A DNA stretch of 64,000 bases, taken from positions 678,917 through 742,916 of the forward strand of contig CBDBHE010000007.1 of NCBI GenBank assembly GCA_965205605.1, read 5' to 3'. Below, one piece after another: positions 46,971 to 58,401 of the stretch (within the stretch, counting starts at the first letter, position 1; the number at the start of each line of letters is the position of its first letter). The stretch comes from Spirochaetota bacterium (GTDB lineage: Bacteria > Spirochaetota > UBA12135 > COTS27 > CBDBHE01). The position numbers and the translations under genes are program-made. Below the pieces are notes generated by a model, which did not search any database, was not told where the DNA came from, and saw nothing but the letters and a program-made list of their open reading frames with translations.

Positions 46971-47372
46971 TTAAGGTTTTTTTTCAGAAGTTTTTTTTGA
47001 TTTTTGAATCAATTTTTTTTTAGGAGTTTTGGGTTTTGTTTTTTCAATATTTTTTTTAAGAATTTTTTCTTCTGAATCGATTTTATTTTTTAAAAATTCG
47101 ATATCTTTGAATACTTTTTGAATATTTTTTGAATATTCATTTATTTTTTGAGGGTTAAGTTCTTGGAAAATTGATTCACCAAAGAGTTTGTATTGATGGT
47201 TAAGCTTATTGATAAGGATTTGAATATCTACTTTTTGAATGCTAATTTTGCCGTATTGATTGGCTTTATTTTGAATAATTTTTGCATATTTTGGAGTATT
47301 TTTTTTAATTGTTTTAGAAACACTTTTAATAAATTTACTGGTTTCTTCATAAAATTTCTCTAAAGCCATCAA
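46971..47372 (-). CDS. Hypothetical basic coiled-coil protein
   Basis: 133-aa ORF with AAGGA upstream; Lys-rich tail. Confidence 0.55.
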   Translation of the reverse strand: MMALEKFYEETSKFIKSVSKTIKKNTPKYAKIIQNKANQYGKISIQKVDIQILINKLNHQYKLFGESIFQELNPQKINEYSKNIQKVFKDIEFLKNKIDSEEKILKKNIEKTKPKTPKKKLIQKSKKTSEKKP

Positions 47373-47490
47373 TCAATTCCTTAAAAAAAATGCATATTTA
47401 GATTATCCTATAAAACAGATTATAAAACAAATTATAAAAATAAATTAAATTTTATTGAACAATTTTTTATTATAAAGGTATAATTAGTCT

Positions 47491-49854
47491 ATGAGTAGGT
47501 ATTTATTATCATTTATTTTGCTATTTTTATTAGCTTTTTTTGAAGGGCCGATTTTTGCTAAGGTAGTGGTAAGTAAAATCGATGTTATCCCCGTCCCTAA
47601 GAGTGTTAAGATGCTCAAAAATGGGGGTTATAAAATAACAGCTTCAACTAAAATTATTGTTTCTGAAAAAACATATAATGTCGGGAAATACTTGGCTCAA
47701 CTGCTTAGACCAGCGACAGGTTTTAAGCTCAAAATTGTCAAGGAAAGCAAAAAGTATTTTAAGAAGGGTGGCTATGAGAATGAGAATGCAATCGTTTTGA
47801 TAACGGAAGCAAAATCCAAAAAGTATACCAAAGAAGGTTATTTTTTTAGGAGTGATGAGCGAGGTGTTGTGATTCGTGCTCGTACCACTCGAGGTGTTTT
47901 TTACGGTTGTCAAACACTTCGTCACTTACTGCCTGGGGCAATTGAAAGTAAAATTAAGGTCGATGGGGTCAGATGGGACGTTCCTGCAACGGAGATTAAC
48001 GATAAGCCTCGTTTTAGTTATCGAGGGATGCACCTTGATGTGGGTCGCCACTTTATGAAGACTGAAGAAATCAAAAAATACATTGATCATCTCGCAATGT
48101 ACAAGATAAATTATTTTCACTGGCACTTGACAGAAGATCAAGGGTGGCGTATCGAAATTAAAAAATACCCAAAGCTCACTGAGATTTCAGCTTGGCGGGA
48201 TCAAACGATCATTGATGGCAAAACGAAGCGTGATGGTAAAGGCAAAACGAAGTATGATGGTAAACGATACGGTGGTTTTTATACTCAAAAAGAAATTCGT
48301 GATATTGTCGCTTATGCGGGAGAAAGATTTATTACGGTTGTTCCCGAAATCGAATTACCAGGTCATACATCTGCTGTTTTAGCGGCTTATCCAGAGCTTG
48401 GCTGTACGGGTGGCCCTTATGAGGTTCGTCAGAGGTGGGGGATTTCTAGAGATGTTTTTTGTGCTGGCAATGAGAAGGTTTATGATTTTCTTGAAGGCGT
48501 GTTTGAAGAAGTTTTGGAATTGTTTCCAAGTGAATATATTCATCTAGGTGGGGATGAATGCCCTAAAGACAGATGGAAAAAATGCCCTAAATGTCAAAAA
48601 CGTATTAAAGAAAAAAAACTAGGAGATGAAAACCATCTTCAAAGTTATTTTGTTAATCGTATGGGAAGATTCTTAGAGAAAAAAGGGCGTAAGTTTATTG
48701 GTTGGGATGAAATCTTGGAGGGGAAGCTTTCTCCTAGTGCAATAGTTATGAGTTGGCGAGGTGAAAAGGGAGGTATTGAAGCTGCCAGAAGAGGTCATAA
48801 GGTCATCATGACCCCTAGAAACTACTGCTATTTTGATTATTATCAAAGCCTGGATCCCCAAGAGCCTTTGGCACATGGTGGATTTCTTCCTTTTGAAAGG
48901 GTCTACAGCTATAATCCTATTCCAGCAGTGCTTAGTGGTAAAGAAGGCAAGCGTGTTCTTGGTGCTCAGGGAAATGTGTGGACAGAGCATATAAGAGACT
49001 TTAAACATGTTGAGTATATGATCTTTCCTCGTCTTTGCGCGTTAGCCGAAGTCGTTTGGAGCCAACCATCAAATAAAAATTTTTCAGATTTTAACAGACG
49101 CTTGTCAAGTCATATCACTCATTTGAATTATTTGAATGTTAATTATCGTCTTCCCAGTCCTGCTGGATTGAAAAAAAAGTATTTCTTTAGAGACAGTGTC
49201 AAGATTAATATTATTCCCTTCCCAGTTGATGGGGCTGTTCATTATACGATTGATGGGAGTCAGCCTACGAAGGCTTCACCAATTTTTAAAGGCCCCATGA
49301 CCATTAAAAAAAGCATGATTCTTAAAGCTCGTAATGTGACCAAAACGGGTAGAATGAGTATTGCGACTACTAGTAAGTTTAAAAAGTTGGTTATGAAAAA
49401 AGCCTCTAAACTTAAAGATGCTAAACGAGGTTTGAAATTTTCTTATTATGATCAAATTCAAAAAGGGATTCGAGAAGTGCCCAATTTCAGCAAGCTAAAA
49501 GTCAAGCGAGTTGGTGTGCAAGAGGTTTTTAGGTTGCTACCAGAAATAAGATCTAATTTTTTTGCCATCAATTTTGAGGGTTATATCAAAGTCCCGTCTG
49601 ATGGTATTTATACTTTTTATACCAGGAGTGATGATGGTAGTTTGCTTTACATTGGGGATGAGAAAATCGTTGATAACAATGGTTTACATGGGGCTGGTGA
49701 GCTGGTCCCCGGTCAAGTGTTGTTAGAAAAAGGGTTCCATAAAATTAGAGTTGGCTATTTTCAAGCTTCGGGGGGGAAATCCATTAAAGTTGTTTATGAA
49801 GGACCAGAGATCAAGAGACAAACTATTCCCAGCAGCGTTCTTTTTCATAAGTAG
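47491..49854 (+). CDS. Secreted GH20 beta-N-acetylhexosaminidase with Fn3-associated and PA14 domains
   Basis: PRFSYRGMHLDVGRHF, HWHLTEDQGWR, PEIELPGH, HLGGDE, NVWTE, YTIDGSQP, SDDGS. Confidence 0.95.
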   Translation: MSRYLLSFILLFLLAFFEGPIFAKVVVSKIDVIPVPKSVKMLKNGGYKITASTKIIVSEKTYNVGKYLAQLLRPATGFKLKIVKESKKYFKKGGYENENAIVLITEAKSKKYTKEGYFFRSDERGVVIRARTTRGVFYGCQTLRHLLPGAIESKIKVDGVRWDVPATEINDKPRFSYRGMHLDVGRHFMKTEEIKKYIDHLAMYKINYFHWHLTEDQGWRIEIKKYPKLTEISAWRDQTIIDGKTKRDGKGKTKYDGKRYGGFYTQKEIRDIVAYAGERFITVVPEIELPGHTSAVLAAYPELGCTGGPYEVRQRWGISRDVFCAGNEKVYDFLEGVFEEVLELFPSEYIHLGGDECPKDRWKKCPKCQKRIKEKKLGDENHLQSYFVNRMGRFLEKKGRKFIGWDEILEGKLSPSAIVMSWRGEKGGIEAARRGHKVIMTPRNYCYFDYYQSLDPQEPLAHGGFLPFERVYSYNPIPAVLSGKEGKRVLGAQGNVWTEHIRDFKHVEYMIFPRLCALAEVVWSQPSNKNFSDFNRRLSSHITHLNYLNVNYRLPSPAGLKKKYFFRDSVKINIIPFPVDGAVHYTIDGSQPTKASPIFKGPMTIKKSMILKARNVTKTGRMSIATTSKFKKLVMKKASKLKDAKRGLKFSYYDQIQKGIREVPNFSKLKVKRVGVQEVFRLLPEIRSNFFAINFEGYIKVPSDGIYTFYTRSDDGSLLYIGDEKIVDNNGLHGAGELVPGQVLLEKGFHKIRVGYFQASGGKSIKVVYEGPEIKRQTIPSSVLFHK

Positions 49855-49996
49855 AAAAAGAAGCTCAAAAAAATATATAAGAGCGTAAAACTTTTACTGC
49901 CGTTTCTTATCCTTGAATGGTGAATGGTGGCTTTTTTTGATCGTTTAATGAGTTTATAAAATAAATTTGAGTCTAATCAGTGTGTGTATTGTGTTT

Positions 49997-50164
49997 GTTT
50001 TGACTTCCCCTTTTTTTCGGATATGTTATAATATGTGTGGCCGACCGGTCCGTTCCTTCTTTGTTTTGACTTCCCCTTTTTTTCGGATATGTTATAATAT
50101 TTTCCAATCACGTTACCTCCCCCTTTTCGTTTTGACTTCCCCTTTTTTTCGGATATGTTATAAT
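49997..50164 (+). CRISPR. Type II CRISPR array: 3 identical 36-bp repeats (49997-50032, 50063-50098, 50129-50164), two 30-bp spacers; a possible third spacer at 49967-49996
   Basis: Repeat GTTTTGACTTCCCCTTTTTTTCGGATATGTTATAAT; spacers ATGTGTGGCCGACCGGTCCGTTCCTTCTTT and ATTTTCCAATCACGTTACCTCCCCCTTTTC; adjacent to cas2. Confidence 0.96.
50156..50164 (+). promoter_or_regulatory. Extended -10 box TGnTATAAT at the 3' end of each repeat (also 50024-50032, 50090-50098)
   Basis: TGTTATAAT; repeat-internal promoters are established for Neisseria and Campylobacter type II-C arrays. Confidence 0.75.
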
Positions 50165-50184
50165 ACATAAAATTAGTTATACTT

Positions 50185-50267
50185 GGGGAAGTCTTAACTA
50201 AACTTAGAAGATGCTCTCACGCTCTATTTCTGTAAGGGAATACCTTGGGGTCTTCTTCTTTCTTTTT
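50185..50267 (+). ncRNA. Putative tracrRNA
   Basis: GGGGAAGTCTTAAC pairs 12/14 with repeat 5' end GTTTTGACTTCCCC; downstream AGAAGA...TCTTCT stem enclosing a TATTTC/GGAATA hairpin, then a U-rich tract; ends approximate. Confidence 0.75.
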
Positions 50268-50270
50268 AAG

Positions 50271-50633
50271 TTACCAAAAATCAAACAACAAAGGTTGCTC
50301 TACACTTTTAAGTTTTTTCTTTTTTTTATAGTCTTTTCCTATGACACCAAGGCTTTTTTCCCACTGTTTATCGGTGATAAAAATCACACGAACATTCCCT
50401 GCGTAAGGGGTGATTTTTTCTAAAAAAATGGCATGTTTTTTCATATGGTCATAATTATCACAGTAACGCATATAGATAGAATATTGCATCATCTGATAGC
50501 CATCATTCAAAAGATCATTTCGAAAACGGCTTGCGGACTTTCGTTCTGTATCTGTCATCACTGGTAGGTCAAACATCACTAAAATCCAGCCCATTTTATA
50601 AGGCCCTTTGGAGATTTTCTTCTGCATAGTCAA
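50271..50633 (-). CDS. cas2: CRISPR-associated Cas2 (type II, Nmeni-like); true start may be slightly downstream
   Basis: MGWILVMFDLPV, FRNDLLNDGYQMMQYSIY, ITDKQW. Confidence 0.95.
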   Translation of the reverse strand: MTMQKKISKGPYKMGWILVMFDLPVMTDTERKSASRFRNDLLNDGYQMMQYSIYMRYCDNYDHMKKHAIFLEKITPYAGNVRVIFITDKQWEKSLGVIGKDYKKKKKLKSVEQPLLFDFW

Positions 50634-51525
50634 TTTCAGGAATCCATAAATTTTCTTTTTTTTGATTTGAAAAAGCCAAACACAAAGACTTTATATAAAT
50701 ATCAATCGCTTCTAGCAAGGTAGTGTTACCTGTTTTATAAGGTATTTTTTTTTGATAAAGCTCTTGTGCACAAAGCTTACACCAAGTATTAAAAGAGTTA
50801 ATGTCTTCTTCAAAAGATGGATCCGTATAAAAAAAGACCAAGCAAGCGTCAATAAAAGGCCTGAGGCATTCCATCAAATCATACACTAAAGGGTGTGAAC
50901 GATAACGAGACCTATGTTGCAAACCAAATTGAGGAAGCAATCCATGAGCGACAATACTACGGTGGCATAGAGCTGATAAAACGGCATACCCATAATTGAG
51001 CTTCTGATTAATTGGGTGATCGTGGTCTTTTCTACGTCTTACTCTTTCATCTGACAAGTATCCAAACAAGTGACTGAAATAGATCCTCGCACAGATAGAT
51101 TCATTTAGTTTTGATTCTTTAATTTTTTCTGATAAGAGATCTGTGTCACATCCAATCAGATTGAGCAAGTTAATCTGGTTTTGAATCTTGTGGTGTAAAA
51201 TATTATTCCAAATTTCTTTTTGAAATTCATCTTTCTGATACACTTGCCCAAAAGTGGTTTCTTTATTAATGATATTACTAATGCCCATCGTAAAGCCGAT
51301 GGGGCAAAAAGAAGCATCGCAATGGAGAATCACCGCTTTGTTTTCCAGTAAACTCTCAACGACTGGTACAGAAAGCACTCCAGATCGACATGCCATGACA
51401 AGAGCTTTGATATCTTTTAAAGGAGTACTCTTTTCGCTTTTATCTTTTCTTTGACAAACGAGAAATCCTCTTTTCTTATACAGATAAGACCCTTCTTTAA
51501 GGATATGAATAATGTGGCGGCTCAT
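50596..51525 (-). CDS. cas1: CRISPR-associated Cas1 (type II)
   Basis: HKIQNQ, ESICARIYF, NQKLNYGYAVL, GLQH, LVYDLMECLRP. Confidence 0.94.
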   Translation of the reverse strand: MSRHIIHILKEGSYLYKKRGFLVCQRKDKSEKSTPLKDIKALVMACRSGVLSVPVVESLLENKAVILHCDASFCPIGFTMGISNIINKETTFGQVYQKDEFQKEIWNNILHHKIQNQINLLNLIGCDTDLLSEKIKESKLNESICARIYFSHLFGYLSDERVRRRKDHDHPINQKLNYGYAVLSALCHRSIVAHGLLPQFGLQHRSRYRSHPLVYDLMECLRPFIDACLVFFYTDPSFEEDINSFNTWCKLCAQELYQKKIPYKTGNTTLLEAIDIYIKSLCLAFSNQKKENLWIPEIDYAEENLQRAL

Positions 51526-51561
51526 CCTTTTTTATCGGAGTCGGCTTGATTAATTTTGACT

Positions 51562-54500
51562 TTAAACGATTTCTAAATGTGTTTCATGATAAAGGTCATT
51601 TATTTGAAAATTTTTATGTACAACCCCTCTATTGCTTTCGATAGCAATCACACCCTCTGTCTTAAGTGATTTTAATGTATACAGCCCTTTGGGAATATCC
51701 CATTTACTATATTTAAAATCCTTTTGTAATTTAAGAATCGTTTCTCCTGCTTTTAATAATTTTCCTTCAAACAAAAGCTCAAGATCTGCATTGGACCTAA
51801 TTTTTTTTTCTTTGATTTTTCTGGGTGAATCAAAGGCATGCACAGGAAAAACCTCGACTTTTTGATTGACGGTATTGATCGCTAAAAATTGACCATGGTT
51901 AAAGGTTCCTTGACTTGAACTGCTGCCATCTTTTACATACTGACCTTTTTTGCCTTTAGGAGCAATGTCTTTATAAGAATCAGGGTTACCAACCTTACGC
52001 ATTACTTTTTTGACAATTCTTTTCCCATTTTTTCCAGAAAAAAATTCTTCTTTAAAAGCTTTGATAAGGTCTTCTTTTTTCTCTCTGTTAGAAATGATGT
52101 CTAAATAATCCTTTTCAAATTCCTCAAGTCGCTTGACAACCTCGCCGTCGAGAATGTTTTTTCTTTGTTCATTGGTTAATCCAAAAAATTCGTTTTTGTC
52201 GTTTAAAAGACTTTTTCTTTCAACAATTTTTTTTTCTTCTTTTCCACCCACAACAATTTTTCTTAATCCATAATAAGTTTTCCCCAAAGCAGGTTTAGCA
52301 CCGACCACCGTTTTGGGCATCAATTTTTCCAGTTGCTTAACAATACTTGCTCTTGCTTCTGAGTCGATACTTTTGTATAGCAAAATATCTTTATTCTTAC
52401 GGTCACTTTCTTCATGGTCATTTTCCTCTCGGTGACGTTCTCGGTCTCTCATCCATTCTCCAGCATAAGTCAGTACCATTGCATCGAGAGCATGGTGCCT
52501 CTTGTCACTTCTATTTTTTTTTTTTTTTATTTTCAATTTTTTCTTTCTTTTCGTCATAGGAAAGTTTTTTCCAATCTTCGCTGTCTCGCTTGATGGGCTC
52601 TCCTAGCTTATGATTTAATCGATGTGCTCTTCTCAAAGCGGCGGTTGTGTCCCCGTCGATTACCCGCACTAGTTTTTTTTCTCCTTTTTCTCCCATTATT
52701 TTCCCATAATGAGCGTAAATGACTTCATGAGTCAAACGAGCAATCCATGCAGTTTCTGCAAGAGCCGTGTATTTGTCAATAAGTGCAACAGCATTTTCTG
52801 AAAGAAGCAATTCTTGTTTCTTACTCCTCTTGGTTTTATCTTTTTTATTTTTAATCCCCGTTGTATTTAAAACTCTTTCTTTATAAGCACCCCATTTTCC
52901 ACTGTTAACTAGCCATTCATAAGGGATTTGATTTTTCTTCTCTTTTTGGTTAGTATCCCTTTTTGTGAGCACTAAATTATAGTCTGCATCATTACCACCC
53001 CTTGATCGAGGGACAATGTGATCGACGTCGTATTCATCCATTTTGTTAGCACTTAAACTTTCACCTGTATACATACAGACATGATTTTGTTGTTTCCAGA
53101 GCTTGTATTTTTTAAAAGTGTTCACACTTATCTCCTCTGAAGCAGTGTGTTTTTGAGCTTCTTCCCTTATTTTTGTATTTTCTTTTTGGTTTTTGTTTTG
53201 AGATTTAATTAGTTTTTCTTTTGCTTTTTTACCTAAAAAATCCTCTCTTATAAATTCAAGATGCACTTCATCGGGATCGCCATATTCTTTAAGCAGTTTT
53301 TTAAATTCTTTGTAAAAAAAATCCAAACGATGACGCACCACTCCATTTCGACAAGAGGCTATAATCTTTTCAACATTTTTTTCTTTTTCAGATGAAACTT
53401 CTTTCAGAGGTGAGATATTGGGAACATGAATTTCCTCCCAAGAATCACCCATTTTTTTTAGCACTTCAAAATGATTAATTTCTAATGAACTTTTCTTTTT
53501 CTCTTCAGGAGTTAAATTTTCAAAAGCTTTGGTCTTTTCTTGATAAAAATCCATAGGTGATTTTCCCGACAAGATTAATTCTTTAATAAGACGTAGAGCG
53601 GGTTTACTATAACGAGACCTCCCTTCAGTTTTTGGAGCACCAATTTCTCTTGTGGTCAAGAAAGAAGCCCCTTGTTTTTCTAAAATTTTTTTAAGATCGG
53701 CTTCAGAAAATTTAAAAGCCGTTATCGCTTTTTTAAAATTTTTCTTATTTTCTTTTAGAATTTTAAGAGCTTTTTGATATTTTTCTTGGTATAAAGAAAT
53801 AATATCTTTTGTTGTAAAGCTTTCTTCTTTGTTTTCCTTGTCATGAAATCTAAAATTTTTAAGTTGTAAAAGAAATGTTACCGAGCCTGAAAGTAGATGA
53901 TGGCGTGTTACTTGATATTCTGGAAAAAGACAACAATGGTTGACACATCGATTATCAAAACGAGGTTTTTTTTGATTTAAAATCCCTTCTATTTTTTTAG
54001 CTGACTGATAAGGTTTTTCATTTTTTCCATAAAGAATCAAATCACTTTGACCACGAAGTTTTGGAATTTGTTTTTTCGCTTGTTTTAAAAGGCAGAAAAT
54101 TTCTTTTTCAACTAACTCTCTACTTGCAGTATAACCTCTTGCTTTTTTAGCGTGGTGATTGATTCGTATTGTTTTTATTTTTTTTGATTTTTCATCCCAC
54201 AGACCCATTTGCCAAGCATCATAGTAACAAGGAAAATGATAATTTTCATCGTCTATTATTTCATTGAGAATGGCTTTGAATTCATTGACTTTTTTTGTAT
54301 TTTCATCTTTGTCCTTTTTTTTTGAATGTTTCCAAGGAACGTCTGTATCGTAGCCTCTTCTTTGAATAGCAGATCGAATTGCTTTATAAATCTGCCAGTC
54401 TTCTAAAGAATATTTTTCTAGCAGTTGGATCCGAAGAAGAGCAGAATTGTAAACGGTTTCGTCTCCTTTCTTGGGGAATTCTCTTTTCATTTTTTCTTTT

Positions 54501-54736
54501 GATGGAATTTCTTTTCCCAAGCCTTTCCATGTTTCTTGTAAATTAGATTCTCTTTCTTTATGAGCTTTCCTAGTTCGAAAAAAACTTCTTTTTTCTCGAC
54601 TTTTGGATGACCTTCCGTGATCAGGATTAATTAAATAAGAGGCTGCTGTTTCAATACAATTTCTTTTTTTAACAGCAAACCCTAATGAGCCCGTACCAAT
54701 ATCAAATCCAAAAATTAAATTGTTTTGATTCTTCAT
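51562..54736 (-). CDS. cas9: Cas9 (type II-C-like), split by a frameshift in an A15 tract (52514-52528); ~1057 aa if one A is removed
   Basis: RuvC-I FDIGTGSLG, Arg-rich bridge helix, RuvC-II HLEFIRE, HNH DVDHIVPRS...NLVL...N in the 741-aa ORF; RuvC-III RHHALDA in the 331-aa ORF. Confidence 0.92.
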
Positions 54737-54761
54737 TCTTTATTACTCGTTTAAAACTTTC

Positions 54762-54783
54762 AAGTATAAAGTATCTTATACTT
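54762..54783. promoter_or_regulatory. 8-bp inverted repeat overlapping the probable cas9 -10 box
   Basis: AAGTATAA-agtatc-TTATACTT; minus-strand TATACT lies 26 bp upstream of the cas9 ATG. Confidence 0.4.
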
Positions 54784-55139
54784 AAGAAAATAAAGCGATT
54801 CATTAATATTGGCAAAAACTATAATCAAGATAAATTTAGGAGGAAATCGCAAAGATTTCACTTGGATAAAAATACAAGGAAATGGTTTTATTAAGCTTAA
54901 TAATTAATGAGTTTGAGTTTCATCTAAAAAGGGGTCAGATAAAAGCAACGATTGTTTTTTCCTACCTATTAATAAGTGTTTTGTAAGCGAGCCTTTTAAC
55001 AGAGAAATACCCTTTTCGATTAAAGGTGGGGGATTGGCTCTTTAGTGAAAATCAACTTGATGATCGGGTAATTGCTTATCAACTAATAAAGTAATTTTTA
55101 TCTTTAAAAAAGCTTAGCATTGTTGAGGCGCTTAAAAAA

Positions 55140-55560
55140 TTAGCAAAACGAAACAAGTCCTTTTTTATACATCTTTCTTATTTTGTCATTCACGATTCTT
55201 TTCATGCTCCTAAACAGTTTGGCTAACAAGTATAAACAAAACCCAAGCATTAAAAACGCTACTTTTGTTACCATGATATTATCTTTAGATAAAAGTGTTG
55301 GAAGTGTTTTAAAGGTATTAGAAGATTTACAAGAAGATAAAAATAAAATTGTTTTTTTATATTCTGATAATGGTGGAGGTACTTTACGAGCTTATGATTT
55401 ATCGAGGAAAAAAATTTTAGGAAAAGAAAAAATCAACTCAGGTACTCTTCTTATCGAGGCTCTAAAAGAGATTTGTATGAAGGAAACTTTTTGTGCTTGG
55501 AGAAAATCAGTTGAAGCTTTTAAAATTTTAAAAAAACCCTTGGTTTTAAACTGTAATTGA
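55140..55560 (+). pseudogene. Sulfatase remnant
   Basis: KRNKSFFIHLSYFVIHDSFHAP, then frameshift into TMILSLDKSVGSVLKVLEDL...IVFLYSDNGG; typical arylsulfatase core motifs, N-terminal catalytic region not visible. Confidence 0.7.
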
Positions 55561-55581
55561 TTTAAAAAAAAACATAAATAA

Positions 55582-58401
55582 ATGACTTCTCCTATTGAAT
55601 CTAGTTATGACTTTAAAAAAAAAGAAGCCGTTATTTATTCTCTTTGGCAAAACGCAAACTATTTTCAAGCTGCTTTTAATAAAGATGGTATCGTAAGAAA
55701 TTTAAAGCGTTCTAAATCAAAGCCTTTTGTTATTATCATGCCGCCTCCTAATGTTACAGGGAGACTCCATATGGGACATGCGCTTAATAATACGATTCAG
55801 GATATTCTCATTCGTTATAAACGGATGGAAGGCTTTGATGCTCTTTGGGTACCGGGGACTGATCATGCGGGAATTTCCACTCAAAGTGTCGTTAAAAAAA
55901 ATCTAGATGCTCAAGGGATTGATTATCGTAATCTTTCAAGAGAAGATTTCCAAAAAAAAGTTTGGAAATGGAAAGAAAAATACGGGGATTTTATTTTAAA
56001 TCAATTAAAAAGATTGGGATGTAGTTGTGATTGGAGTCGAAGTGTTTTTACAATGGATGACACTCCTTCTAAAGCTGTTTCGTATGCCTTTTGTGACTTG
56101 TATAAGAAAGGGCTTATTTATAAAGGAAAACGAATTGTTAATTGGTGTCCTTTAGATCAAACAGCGCTTTCTGATGATGAAGTTGAAGTTGAAGTTGAAG
56201 AAGGTTCTCTTTGGTATATTCGTTATTTTTTTTCTAATCGGAAGGATTCTGTTGTGATTGCAACAACGCGTCCAGAAACTCTTTTTGGAGATGTTGCCGT
56301 TGCTGTTCACCCAGATGACAAACGTTATCGTCGTTTAAAAAATCAAAAAATCATTGTTCCTATTGTTGAAAAAGAAGTTTCTGTTGTTTTTGATTCGTTT
56401 GTAGAGATGAACTTTGGCAGTGGTTGTGTTAAAATCACTCCCGCTCATGATGCTAATGACTTTGAGGTGGGTAAACGACATCAATTAGATTGTATTAATG
56501 TCATGGATCAAGAGGCTTGTATGAATGAGCGAGTCCCAAAAGATTTTAGAGGATTAAGTCGTGAAGTATGTCGTCAAAAAGTCTTACAAATCCTTTCTGA
56601 AAAAGGTCTTTTAGTTAAAGAAGAAAAGAAAAAAATTGCCATAGGTCGTTCTTATCGATCTAAAGCGATTATTGAATATAGACTTTCAGATCAGTGGTTT
56701 GTAAAAATGAAAGAGCTAGCTCAAGAAGTTTTAAATCATGATGAAGCGTTTCATGTTTTTCCGATTCATTGGAAAAAAGTTTACCATCACTGGCTTAATC
56801 ATATACAAGACTGGTGTATTTCAAGGCAAATTTGGTGGGGACATCGGATCCCTGCTTGGATTCATAAGCAAACAAAGCAAATAATTGTAGGGCAAAATAT
56901 TCCCAAGCAAGTGCTTGAAAACTCTAACGAATGGGAGCAAGAAAATGATGTTTTAGATACTTGGTTTTCTTCTTCGCTTTGGCCGATGTCTTCTCTTGGG
57001 TGGCCTGAAAATACGTTTGATTTTAAACGATATTTCCCAACAACAATTTTATCAACCGCAAAAGACATTTTGTTTTTTTGGGTTGCTCGCATGAATATGA
57101 TGACTTTTCATTTTCAAAAAAAAATACCCTATCAAGATGTTTATTTTCATTCAACCGTTATGGATAAAAATGGTAAAACCATGTCTAAATCAAAAGGCAA
57201 TGGTATTGATCCCATTCATATTATTGAAGGGGCAACAAAAGAAGAACTTAAAGACCCTATTTATGATGCCAAACCTTCTAATATGAAATCAATGTTAAAA
57301 GCAATTGAACAAAATTATCCAGAGGGATTTTTTGGGGTGGGTTGTGATGCTTTGCGTTATACCTTGATTTATCTTTGTTCTTCAGGGCAAGAGCTGCATT
57401 TATCGATCGATCGTTTTGTGGATATTGGTCGTCGATTTATTACTAAATTTTGGAATGCAGCTAGGTTTGTCCTGACGCATTTAAATGATTTAGAAGATGC
57501 TACCTATGTAAAAAAAAAATTCATCCCTCGAGAAGAAGATTTATGGATTTTAATGCGTTTTTCTCAAACCTTAACAGAGGTGAAAAAAGCTTTGGACCTT
57601 TATGAATTTTCTAAATTAGGATCTCTTTATTATAAATTTGTTTGGAATGATTTTTGTGATTGGTATCTTGAACTGACAAAACTTTTTTTTAAAACCTCAG
57701 ATAATCTTGTAAAAAAAAGAGAAAAAATCTTTTTTCTTACTTTAGTTTTAAAAAAAACACTAAAAATTTTACATCCTCTCTTGCCTTTTGTTACTGAAGA
57801 ACTATGGTCTTCTCTTAGGAGCCTTTCAATTAAAAAAGGATTTTGGGCCCAAGAAGACGAACAACAACACCTTATCGTAGCTACTTTCCCAAAAGAAAAA
57901 AAAAACACTTTTTTAAAAGAAAATCAGCAAAGAAGCCATTCTTTTCAATTTCTTCAGAGTATTGTTACTTCAATAAGAAGCCTTAGAAAACGGTTTCATA
58001 TTAAAGAAAGTGAAATCATTAACTGTTTTTATAAAATCATTGATCCAAAAGAAAAAAATATTTTCATCTATCATAAAGCTTCTATTTGTAACTTTGCAAA
58101 ATTATCTATTAAAGAAGTCAACCATACAAATCATTTGGATTTATTAACAAAAATAGTATTTCCTGCTTTAGAAATTTTTCTTGATTTAAGGCATTTGGTT
58201 GATTTTGATAAAGAAAAACAACGTCTAAAGACAGTGATTGAAAAAACAGAAAAAGAATTTTCACAATGTCAAAAAAAACTTAATAATGAAAATTTTTTAA
58301 AAAAAGCTAAAAAAAAAATTGTTGATAAAGAACAAAAAAAAAAAAAAACCCTTGAAGCCACTCTTAAAAGAATTAAAGTAGAGTTGCAATCTTTTAGTTG
58401 A
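55582..58401 (+). CDS. valS: Valine--tRNA ligase
   Basis: PPPNVTGRLHMGH, DHAGISTQ, DWCISRQIWWGH, TMSKSKGN, C-terminal coiled coil. Confidence 0.97.
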   Translation: MTSPIESSYDFKKKEAVIYSLWQNANYFQAAFNKDGIVRNLKRSKSKPFVIIMPPPNVTGRLHMGHALNNTIQDILIRYKRMEGFDALWVPGTDHAGISTQSVVKKNLDAQGIDYRNLSREDFQKKVWKWKEKYGDFILNQLKRLGCSCDWSRSVFTMDDTPSKAVSYAFCDLYKKGLIYKGKRIVNWCPLDQTALSDDEVEVEVEEGSLWYIRYFFSNRKDSVVIATTRPETLFGDVAVAVHPDDKRYRRLKNQKIIVPIVEKEVSVVFDSFVEMNFGSGCVKITPAHDANDFEVGKRHQLDCINVMDQEACMNERVPKDFRGLSREVCRQKVLQILSEKGLLVKEEKKKIAIGRSYRSKAIIEYRLSDQWFVKMKELAQEVLNHDEAFHVFPIHWKKVYHHWLNHIQDWCISRQIWWGHRIPAWIHKQTKQIIVGQNIPKQVLENSNEWEQENDVLDTWFSSSLWPMSSLGWPENTFDFKRYFPTTILSTAKDILFFWVARMNMMTFHFQKKIPYQDVYFHSTVMDKNGKTMSKSKGNGIDPIHIIEGATKEELKDPIYDAKPSNMKSMLKAIEQNYPEGFFGVGCDALRYTLIYLCSSGQELHLSIDRFVDIGRRFITKFWNAARFVLTHLNDLEDATYVKKKFIPREEDLWILMRFSQTLTEVKKALDLYEFSKLGSLYYKFVWNDFCDWYLELTKLFFKTSDNLVKKREKIFFLTLVLKKTLKILHPLLPFVTEELWSSLRSLSIKKGFWAQEDEQQHLIVATFPKEKKNTFLKENQQRSHSFQFLQSIVTSIRSLRKRFHIKESEIINCFYKIIDPKEKNIFIYHKASICNFAKLSIKEVNHTNHLDLLTKIVFPALEIFLDLRHLVDFDKEKQRLKTVIEKTEKEFSQCQKKLNNENFLKKAKKKIVDKEQKKKKTLEATLKRIKVELQSFS

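Follow-up and report, generated by a model that had tools for sequence, protein, structure and literature searches.

Can a native CRISPR array deliver a spacer that is already joined to its trans-activating CRISPR RNA (tracrRNA)? This question is raised by a type II locus in a 64,000-nucleotide (nt) stretch of a Spirochaetota genome (assembly GCA_965205605.1, contig CBDBHE010000007.1, positions 678,917 to 742,916 of the forward strand), hereafter called the window. The locus includes a Cas9 with RuvC and HNH domains (TIGR01865, 202 bits), cas1, cas2 and an adjoining array of three identical 36-nt repeats on the + strand (49997-50164), with two 30-nt spacers between them. A sequence-only reading of the window had proposed that this array runs straight into a tracrRNA on the same strand, forming a candidate natural single-guide RNA. 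This idea is plausible for the last spacer. In our preferred reading, which we hold tentatively and regard as a little short of probable, the locus contains a compacted tracrRNA gene next to a II-C-like array, and read-through from the array would yield longer RNAs, including a single guide folded in cis that Cas9 could load.

The anti-repeat GGGGAAGTCTTAAC starts 20 nt past the last repeat on the same strand and pairs with repeat nt 1-14 at 12 of the 14 positions. Its coordinates, strand, spacing and pairing, as well as the 2x2 U/U internal loop, are those given by the sequence-only reading, which had also limited the anti-repeat to 14 of the 36 repeat nt: RNAduplex predicts 12 pairs (-21.0 kcal/mol) and nothing beyond nt 15. 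The nested hairpins and U-tract that it had described after the anti-repeat correspond to one long hairpin at 50206-50259 and, behind it, a U-rich tail at 50260-50267, which stops 3 nt short of the cas2 stop codon. The anti-repeat pattern occurs four times in the window, three of these being the repeats, versus 0.08 occurrences expected, and GGGGAAGTCTTAAC is single-copy in the source genome (1.69 Mb in 8 contigs, ~30% G+C, 91% complete). The array of this repeat is likewise present only once in the whole assembly. The single-guide proposal presupposes that no longer anti-repeat lies elsewhere, and none was found in this 91% complete assembly. Other reverse-strand matches to the repeat were rejected: none of the best three (E 0.12-1.9) is followed by a tracr-like structure, and two of them fall within long open reading frames, the third within a short interval that separates such frames. 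Rfam gave no known family at the tracr site, all matches within 47000-56000 having E values of at least 0.9 and lying elsewhere. Furthermore, a covariance model built from 21 relatives, with the window left out, matched 50185-50280 with 36.7 bits (E 8.6e-7), the next match in the window scoring 14.8 bits; on the whole genome, the tracr site was the only match below E 0.9. Because of this match and of the covariation of both the repeat:anti-repeat helix and the hairpin described below, the element is, judged by comparison with its relatives, a genuine tracrRNA located on the CRISPR RNA (crRNA) strand, at the site usual for its Cas9 family.

Phage-borne tracr or single-guide look-alikes were also considered and rejected. 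The 14-mer occurs in at least 113 viral stretches and 12 of 80 loci scored 23.7-28 bits with the model, scores largely explained by the 14-mer itself. Of the two that were examined, L128 reads as coding sequence, with what by eye resembles a methyltransferase motif, and L160 has no convincing fold.

Relatives of the locus were collected through its Cas9. A single-protein scan of genome contigs gave only one distant locus (L011). A protein search returned 188 homologues at E <=1e-20, the 120 listed being mostly 1000-1250 amino acids (aa) long, and an alignment of 65 homologues was used to pull 80 metagenome loci. Altogether, 82 stretches were examined (the window, L036 and L038-L117). L036 comes from G003, a genome of the same order that encodes an intact Cas9 homologue of 1126 aa, 38-48% identical, with the same layout. 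An array of ~66-nt period lies downstream of cas2 in 35 of the 82 stretches, six short matches with other periods having been set aside. One repeat type is common to 26 of these 35 arrays, including that of the window: it starts with GTTTTG(A/C)CTTC..., is read against cas9 and mostly has a -10-like TA(G/A/T)AAT at its 3' end. The start motif matches literally in 20 of the 26; among the variants, L038, L058, L051, L050 and L056 are off by one base, L082 and L083 begin with GTTTTGATTT and the consensus of L089 is cut short. All 25 relatives with this repeat type (22 found by automatic scan and L041, L082 and L083 by eye) carry an anti-repeat on the crRNA strand directly after the cas-proximal repeat. 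The remaining nine arrays go with more distant Cas9s (23-28% identity) and other repeats, and matches at that position are at chance level.

Covariation was assessed on 23 pairs between repeat and anti-repeat in 22 sequences. It was found that 92.3% of the cells are paired, versus 40-60% when the partner is slid, and that 16 of the 23 pairs have changed on both sides, which none of 500 shuffles matched. The 2x2 U/U loop is retained across the family. Moreover, in the family scaffold a linker leads to one long hairpin, whose apex bears a conserved CACTG...CACG motif and which is followed by a T-run; 13 of the 14 pairs of this hairpin show compensatory changes. To judge from these loci, members of this Cas9 clade normally have their tracrRNA right behind the terminal repeat and on its strand, and the layout itself is not special. 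Since weak terminator-like sites precede the anti-repeat in just 4 of 22 relatives, read-through from array to tracrRNA is a possibility across the family. In the window, no terminator-like site was found between repeat 3 and the anti-repeat, as the sequence-only reading had stated. Its single-guide interpretation is therefore only partly upheld: the tracrRNA is genuine, no terminator-like site intervenes and the cis fold is predicted, whereas same-strand adjacency is a family norm.

What is new here is the extreme compaction of the locus in a genome without detectable RNase III, the layout as such being already known in kind. The gap between the terminal repeat and the lower-stem anti-repeat is 20 nt in the window, versus 37-79 nt (mostly 56-58) in relatives; near homologous cas9 genes, the adjacency is conserved in 25 of 25 relatives with this repeat type and the spacing is not. 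Furthermore, the repeat:anti-repeat duplex is 12 base pairs (bp) long, versus 20-32 bp, close to full length, in relatives. An alignment points to a loss of ~37 nt in comparison with G003, which would have taken away the distal anti-repeat together with a promoter-like site of the gap and left the 14-nt lower stem.

In 13 of 22 relatives, the gap contains a TTGnnn hexamer at position +5 and, farther on, a -10-like hexamer whose last base falls at +32 to +34 (consensus matches only). The -10-like hexamer lies 17-27 nt before the lower stem in 12 of the 13 (22-23 nt in seven) and 4 nt before it in L039. These sites fit a dedicated tracrRNA promoter. In the window gap, neither AGGCTTG nor a TTGnnn-N16-18 -10-like promoter site was found, and the TGTTATAAT of repeat 3 is the only promoter-like element upstream of the anti-repeat. 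Since the gap has no promoter-like site, the repeat 3 promoter most likely drives the tracrRNA; with the usual spacing, this RNA of ~97 nt would start at ~50171. The sequence-only reading had held that the repeats carry their own promoters, and a perfect extended -10 box (consensus match), TGTTATAAT, does end each of the three repeats. With a -10 box at the end of each repeat, the array looks II-C-like; its strand is set by the orientation of the anti-repeat and scaffold. By analogy with Campylobacter jejuni (PMC3656092), transcription from the repeat 2 box would start at ~50105.

In most relatives (L038-L077), the 7 nt that immediately follow the cas-proximal repeat are a conserved AGGCTTG, a motif absent from the window (ACATAAA) and G003 (ACGTAAG). 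It may anchor the leader for spacer integration, serve as the -35 element of the tracrRNA promoter, or do both. In G003 (L036, G003:C317, 219-250), a 24-nt insert splits the distal from the proximal half of the anti-repeat and folds with the distal half into an AU-rich hairpin of 13 bp without mismatch.

One relative has lost the distal anti-repeat in a comparable manner. In L039, the gap is 37 nt and only the lower stem is contiguous, giving a 14-position anti-repeat as in the window. Since this locus is intact (cas9 of 1015 aa, cas1, cas2 and 17 repeats), an anti-repeat reduced to the lower stem is, by this comparison, not in itself a sign of decay. In addition, up to 10 bp can be removed from the repeat:anti-repeat stem of Cas9d single guides without abolishing cutting (PMC12339737, PMC11903963).

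The preferred reading makes predictions about transcripts. The promoter of every repeat would fire and all transcripts would run to the tracrRNA terminator beside the cas2 stop codon, giving three co-terminal RNAs. The repeat 3 promoter should yield the ~97-nt RNA, a stand-alone tracrRNA that the sequence-only reading had not foreseen and that makes pairing in trans equally available. The repeat 2 promoter would yield an RNA of ~163 nt in which ~24 nt of spacer 2 are followed by repeat 3 and, after a 42-nt loop, by the anti-repeat with its scaffold, and which would fold in cis in the manner of a single guide. The repeat 1 promoter would yield an RNA of ~229 nt. Folding of the contiguous transcript, as the sequence-only reading had envisaged, agrees with the cis form: for the 163-nt RNA, ViennaRNA assigns a probability of 0.98-1.0 to the helix between repeat 3 and the anti-repeat. 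Spacer 1 would use the free tracrRNA in trans; the cofold of its crRNA with the 97-nt tracrRNA is predicted at -39.4 kcal/mol versus -28.0 kcal/mol for the two monomers, a gain of ~11 kcal/mol. With a duplex of just 12 bp and no RNase III gene detected in the genome, the cis form would be expected to remain intact, and Cas9 could load it uncut. That a contiguous spacer 2-tracrRNA exists and guides Cas9 appears to us to lie between doubtful and almost evenly balanced.

RNase III was searched for in several ways. The models TIGR02191, PF14622 and PF00636 had no match in the source genome (91% complete assembly), and when the RNase III frames from G007 and three genomes of the same phylum were compared with it by tblastn, no match had an E value below 0.2. 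A stretch of G004 was also queried (five relatives' loci in all), none of its frames having been shown to be RNase III. Flanking genes from three of these loci (L239-L241) match the source genome at E values down to 1e-107. RNase III is present in all 52 sampled same-phylum genomes outside the order, whereas a match is absent from seven of nine genomes of the order (the source genome and six of the eight genomes G001-G008), three of the seven being single-contig. Since a hairpin between repeat and anti-repeat in cis would escape the usual cleavage where RNase III is lacking, a lasting contiguous RNA is more likely in such a genome.

The source genome carries a second type II locus (G000:C7, ~205,700-210,700; L037 5700-10700) with an unbroken cas9 (1161 aa, TIGR01865 672 bits), cas1 and cas2. 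Its array consists of two 36-nt repeats ending with TGATATAAT (L037 5700-5735 and 5768-5803) and one 32-nt spacer. An anti-repeat is located upstream of this cas9, near L037 10657 (+), with a predicted duplex of ~29 bp (-31.1 kcal/mol). The repeat is internally palindromic (~11 bp); self-folding of this repeat was considered and rejected, the conventional anti-repeat upstream of cas9 explaining the locus better.

The sequence-only reading had also claimed that each new spacer would take the fused position. In II-C arrays, new spacers are reported to enter at the last transcribed repeat (PMC12080349), and in this family the tracr-proximal repeat equals the consensus in 22 of 22 loci, the distal repeat being mutated in 2 of the 11 arrays that end inside their locus. 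The same polarity of spacer gain is weakly indicated here. A bolder version, which we find doubtful, is that without RNase III the guide of the newest spacer would be one uncut RNA, that is, a native reprogrammable single guide renewed at each acquisition. Across the family, the run from array to tracrRNA could reflect a loading that favours the newest spacer, or be a relic of an omega-RNA-like single-RNA ancestor. A literature search of partial coverage found no report of a fused crRNA-tracrRNA arising from array read-through.

Several points weigh against the preferred reading. All promoter calls are consensus matches only, and the published stem-truncation data (PMC12339737, PMC11903963) come from other Cas9d lineages. 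In the 229-nt RNA, an equilibrium model pairs the anti-repeat with repeat 2 at a probability of 0.8, versus 0.19 for repeat 3. The tracr hairpin of the window has a 28-nt apical insert (13 nt in the model) and lacks the conserved CACTG...CACG loop motif. In addition, the reading frame of cas9 changes (+1/-2) at an A15 run (52514-52528, minus strand), which splits the gene; because of this split, the system may be off. The array has just two spacers, and no target was found for either: there is no self-target in the genome with up to 7 mismatches, no phage record covers at least 80% of either spacer, and the 3' 20 nt of each have no exact match in IMG/VR. Finally, since the second locus (~29 bp) and G003 keep long anti-repeats, a short anti-repeat is, on this comparison, not a necessary adaptation to the loss of RNase III.

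These points bear on the rival explanations to different degrees. The locus could be an ordinary dual-RNA system, which we place on the unlikely side: the repeat 3 promoter would make a separate tracrRNA acting in trans only, the closeness to the array would have no functional meaning, and read-through RNAs would be rare, cut in the AU-rich 42-nt loop by other RNases, or not loaded. The gap promoter-like site of 13 of 22 relatives suggests that the family normally makes a separate tracrRNA, and the window fits this view: a perfect extended -10 box precedes the anti-repeat by 20 nt, a distance near the 22-23 nt of the gap site in relatives, and the trans cofold is favourable (by ~11 kcal/mol). 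However, nothing in the sequence stops read-through, the cis helix has a predicted probability of ~1 and no RNase III was found that would part the two halves. Another possibility, clearly improbable in our view, is that the deletion of anti-repeat and promoter, the cas9 frameshift and the two-spacer array all reflect a decaying locus, with the system being lost and no functional guide. The three repeats are nevertheless identical, cas1 and cas2 are whole and the tracrRNA still scores 36.7 bits; L039 couples a 14-position anti-repeat with an intact, spacer-rich locus. The A15 split is on the side of decay, although one slip at a homopolymer can revert, and it may stem from the assembly or be compensated by slippage, and most other A/T runs of at least 12 nt inside long open frames of this genome are in frame. 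The altered tracr hairpin (apical insert and lost motif) also speaks for decay, as do the three repeats, versus 11-57 in most relatives whose array is not cut by a contig end, and the other type II locus of the genome, whose cas9 is unbroken but whose array has only two repeats.

A regulatory role of the tracr-L type would be yet another explanation: the fused RNA would steer Cas9 to its own promoter and repress the cas operon instead of serving immunity. Natural single guides are known in II-A and have been reported for II-C (bioRxiv 10.1101/2020.05.21.102756; 10.64898/2026.06.01.729453). Here, however, no match of at least 9 nt to a spacer 3' end was found in 54601-55400 upstream of cas9 (only 8-mers), no genome match was found with up to 7 mismatches, and the guide position is occupied by an ordinary 30-nt spacer between perfect repeats. 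We regard this explanation as scarcely credible.

NF049971, the NCBIfam model named "Cas9d", has a cut-off of 375 bits that is exceeded by the 741-aa part alone; the G003 homologue scores 664 bits. Going beyond the sequence-only reading, we find by this profile that the frameshifted cas9 encodes a nuclease matching the Cas9d model and not a classical II-C Cas9. "Cas9d" is nevertheless used here as the NCBIfam label of the nuclease only: published type II-D criteria are a compact Cas9 of ~750-950 aa, a small REC domain and a long pseudoknotted scaffold, whereas we found a protein of ~1070 aa and a ~70-nt scaffold with one covarying hairpin. A sequence search of the Protein Data Bank gave 44 matches, in which the top-scoring chains are Cas9s of 1055-1154 aa matched in the HNH region only; none of the matches reached past this region. 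From their entry codes, we take these chains to resemble II-C Cas9s. Since the top structure matches are confined to the HNH region, the Cas9 clade of the window appears to have no close solved relative.

A run of A14 or A17 at 52514-52528 would restore a single cas9 frame. The source genome contains 153 A/T runs of at least 12 nt; inside long open frames, most are in frame and a handful change the frame. Other frame-changing A/T runs lie at C6:49874, C7:628144, C1:27077 and C1:57825. Such runs are reminiscent of the poly(A) slippage of reduced genomes. For the cas9 split, the candidate causes are an error in the assembly, a genuine slip that can revert, and decay of the gene.

Several known systems share parts of this organization. 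In Neisseria meningitidis II-C, crRNAs are said to be independent of processing: the repeats carry promoters, RNase III can be dispensed with and new spacers go in at the last repeat to be transcribed. The tracrRNA reportedly lies elsewhere in the locus with a long anti-repeat. We know of no fused RNA described in Neisseria. Campylobacter jejuni NCTC11168 II-C has the same cas9-cas1-cas2 order with an array transcribed against the cas genes (PMC3656092, PMC3737331), a -10 box at every repeat's 3' end, the repeat ending with GGTAAAAT as in L048 and L072, and a short tracrRNA (~75 nt). The 5' ends of its crRNAs are transcription starts inside spacers, as would be the case here. It differs by a long perfect repeat:tracrRNA pairing and by RNase III processing, as compared with 12 bp and no RNase III found for the window. 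In tracr-L and phage vsgRNAs (10.1101/2020.05.21.102756, 10.64898/2026.06.01.729453), as predicted here, guide, repeat-like arm, anti-repeat and scaffold are on one transcript folded in cis. However, those RNAs carry a fixed short guide directed at the cas9 promoter, or act as anti-CRISPR, whereas the guide of the window would be a replaceable 30-nt spacer. The Cas9d proteins MG34-1 and NsCas9d (PMC9755519, PMC11903963, PMC12339737) share the NCBIfam label; in MG34-1, array and tracrRNA are also read in one direction, and engineered guides with a shortened repeat:anti-repeat stem keep cutting. Those enzymes are however of ~750 aa with pseudoknotted scaffolds of ~115-135 nt, as opposed to ~1070 aa and a single-hairpin scaffold of ~70 nt. 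Lastly, the omega-RNA of IscB (PMC12339737) also has guide and scaffold on one RNA and a P1-like adaptor hairpin, but no CRISPR array and a much larger scaffold. An evolutionary link between IscB and the window locus is speculation.

The single-guide RNA is regarded as an engineered fusion, and the known natural ones (tracr-L and phage vsgRNAs) carry fixed regulatory or decoy guides. If the preferred reading is true, guide biogenesis would gain a new route, a native array delivering an acquired spacer pre-fused to tracrRNA. Such an array would further demonstrate type II function in a genome in which no RNase III was found and would bear on the origin of dual RNAs from single-RNA ancestors. 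From a practical point of view, the family offers a short scaffold supported by covariation (lower stem plus one hairpin, ~83 nt) for Cas9s of ~1000-1150 aa. Even if the fused RNA is inert, the placement of the tracrRNA after the terminal repeat in this clade is useful for annotation, and seven of the nine genomes of the order have no RNase III match, yet the source genome has two type II loci. The features of the locus are collected in the table.

Table. Coordinates of the array, tracrRNA and cas genes in the window
Feature	Coordinates	Strand	Description
CRISPR repeat 1 (distal, "extra" repeat)	49997..50032	+	36 nt; 3' end is TGTTATAAT
Spacer 1	50033..50062	+	30 nt; 57% G+C versus ~30% for the genome
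CRISPR repeat 2	50063..50098	+	Extended -10 box at 50090-50098; putative start at ~50105 for the spacer 2 transcript
Spacer 2	50099..50128	+	30 nt; guide of the putative contiguous RNA
CRISPR repeat 3 (terminal, cas-proximal)	50129..50164	+	nt 1-14 pair with the anti-repeat; TGTTATAAT at 50156-50164
Gap	50165..50184	+	20 nt; would be the 5' leader of a tracrRNA started at ~50171
Anti-repeat GGGGAAGTCTTAAC	50185..50198	+	Lower stem only; 12 bp over 14 positions, 2x2 U/U loop
tracrRNA scaffold	50199..50267	+	7-nt linker 50199-50205, long hairpin 50206-50259, U-rich tail 50260-50267
cas2	50271..50633	-	120 aa; TIGR01573, E 1.8e-18
cas1, type II	50596..51525	-	309 aa; TIGR03639, 168 bits
cas9, C-terminal open frame	51562..52557	-	331 aa; Cas9d profile positions 699-980, RuvC-III motif RHHALD
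cas9, N-terminal open frame	52511..54736	-	741 aa; Cas9d profile positions 2-699, 620.3 bits; stops just past the A15 run

Two minor observations concern the spacers and the flank of the array. In G003, two adjacent spacers (L036, G003:C317, 72-101 and 138-167) differ at only 2-3 positions, and both resemble spacer 1 of the window (50033-50062), with GTGGCC.AC...CGTTCC in common and a 3-nt indel. The two genomes belong to different families and no statistics are attached to this likeness; related mobile elements that contain a common target might explain it, or chance. Upstream of the array, between a + strand open reading frame of 787 aa (ending at 49854) and repeat 1, a hairpin is followed by a U7 run at 49898-49939 (+). 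Its fold is no better than that of shuffled sequence (z -0.38). This hairpin could keep outside transcription from entering the array, a role put forward for II-C arrays in PMC12080349.

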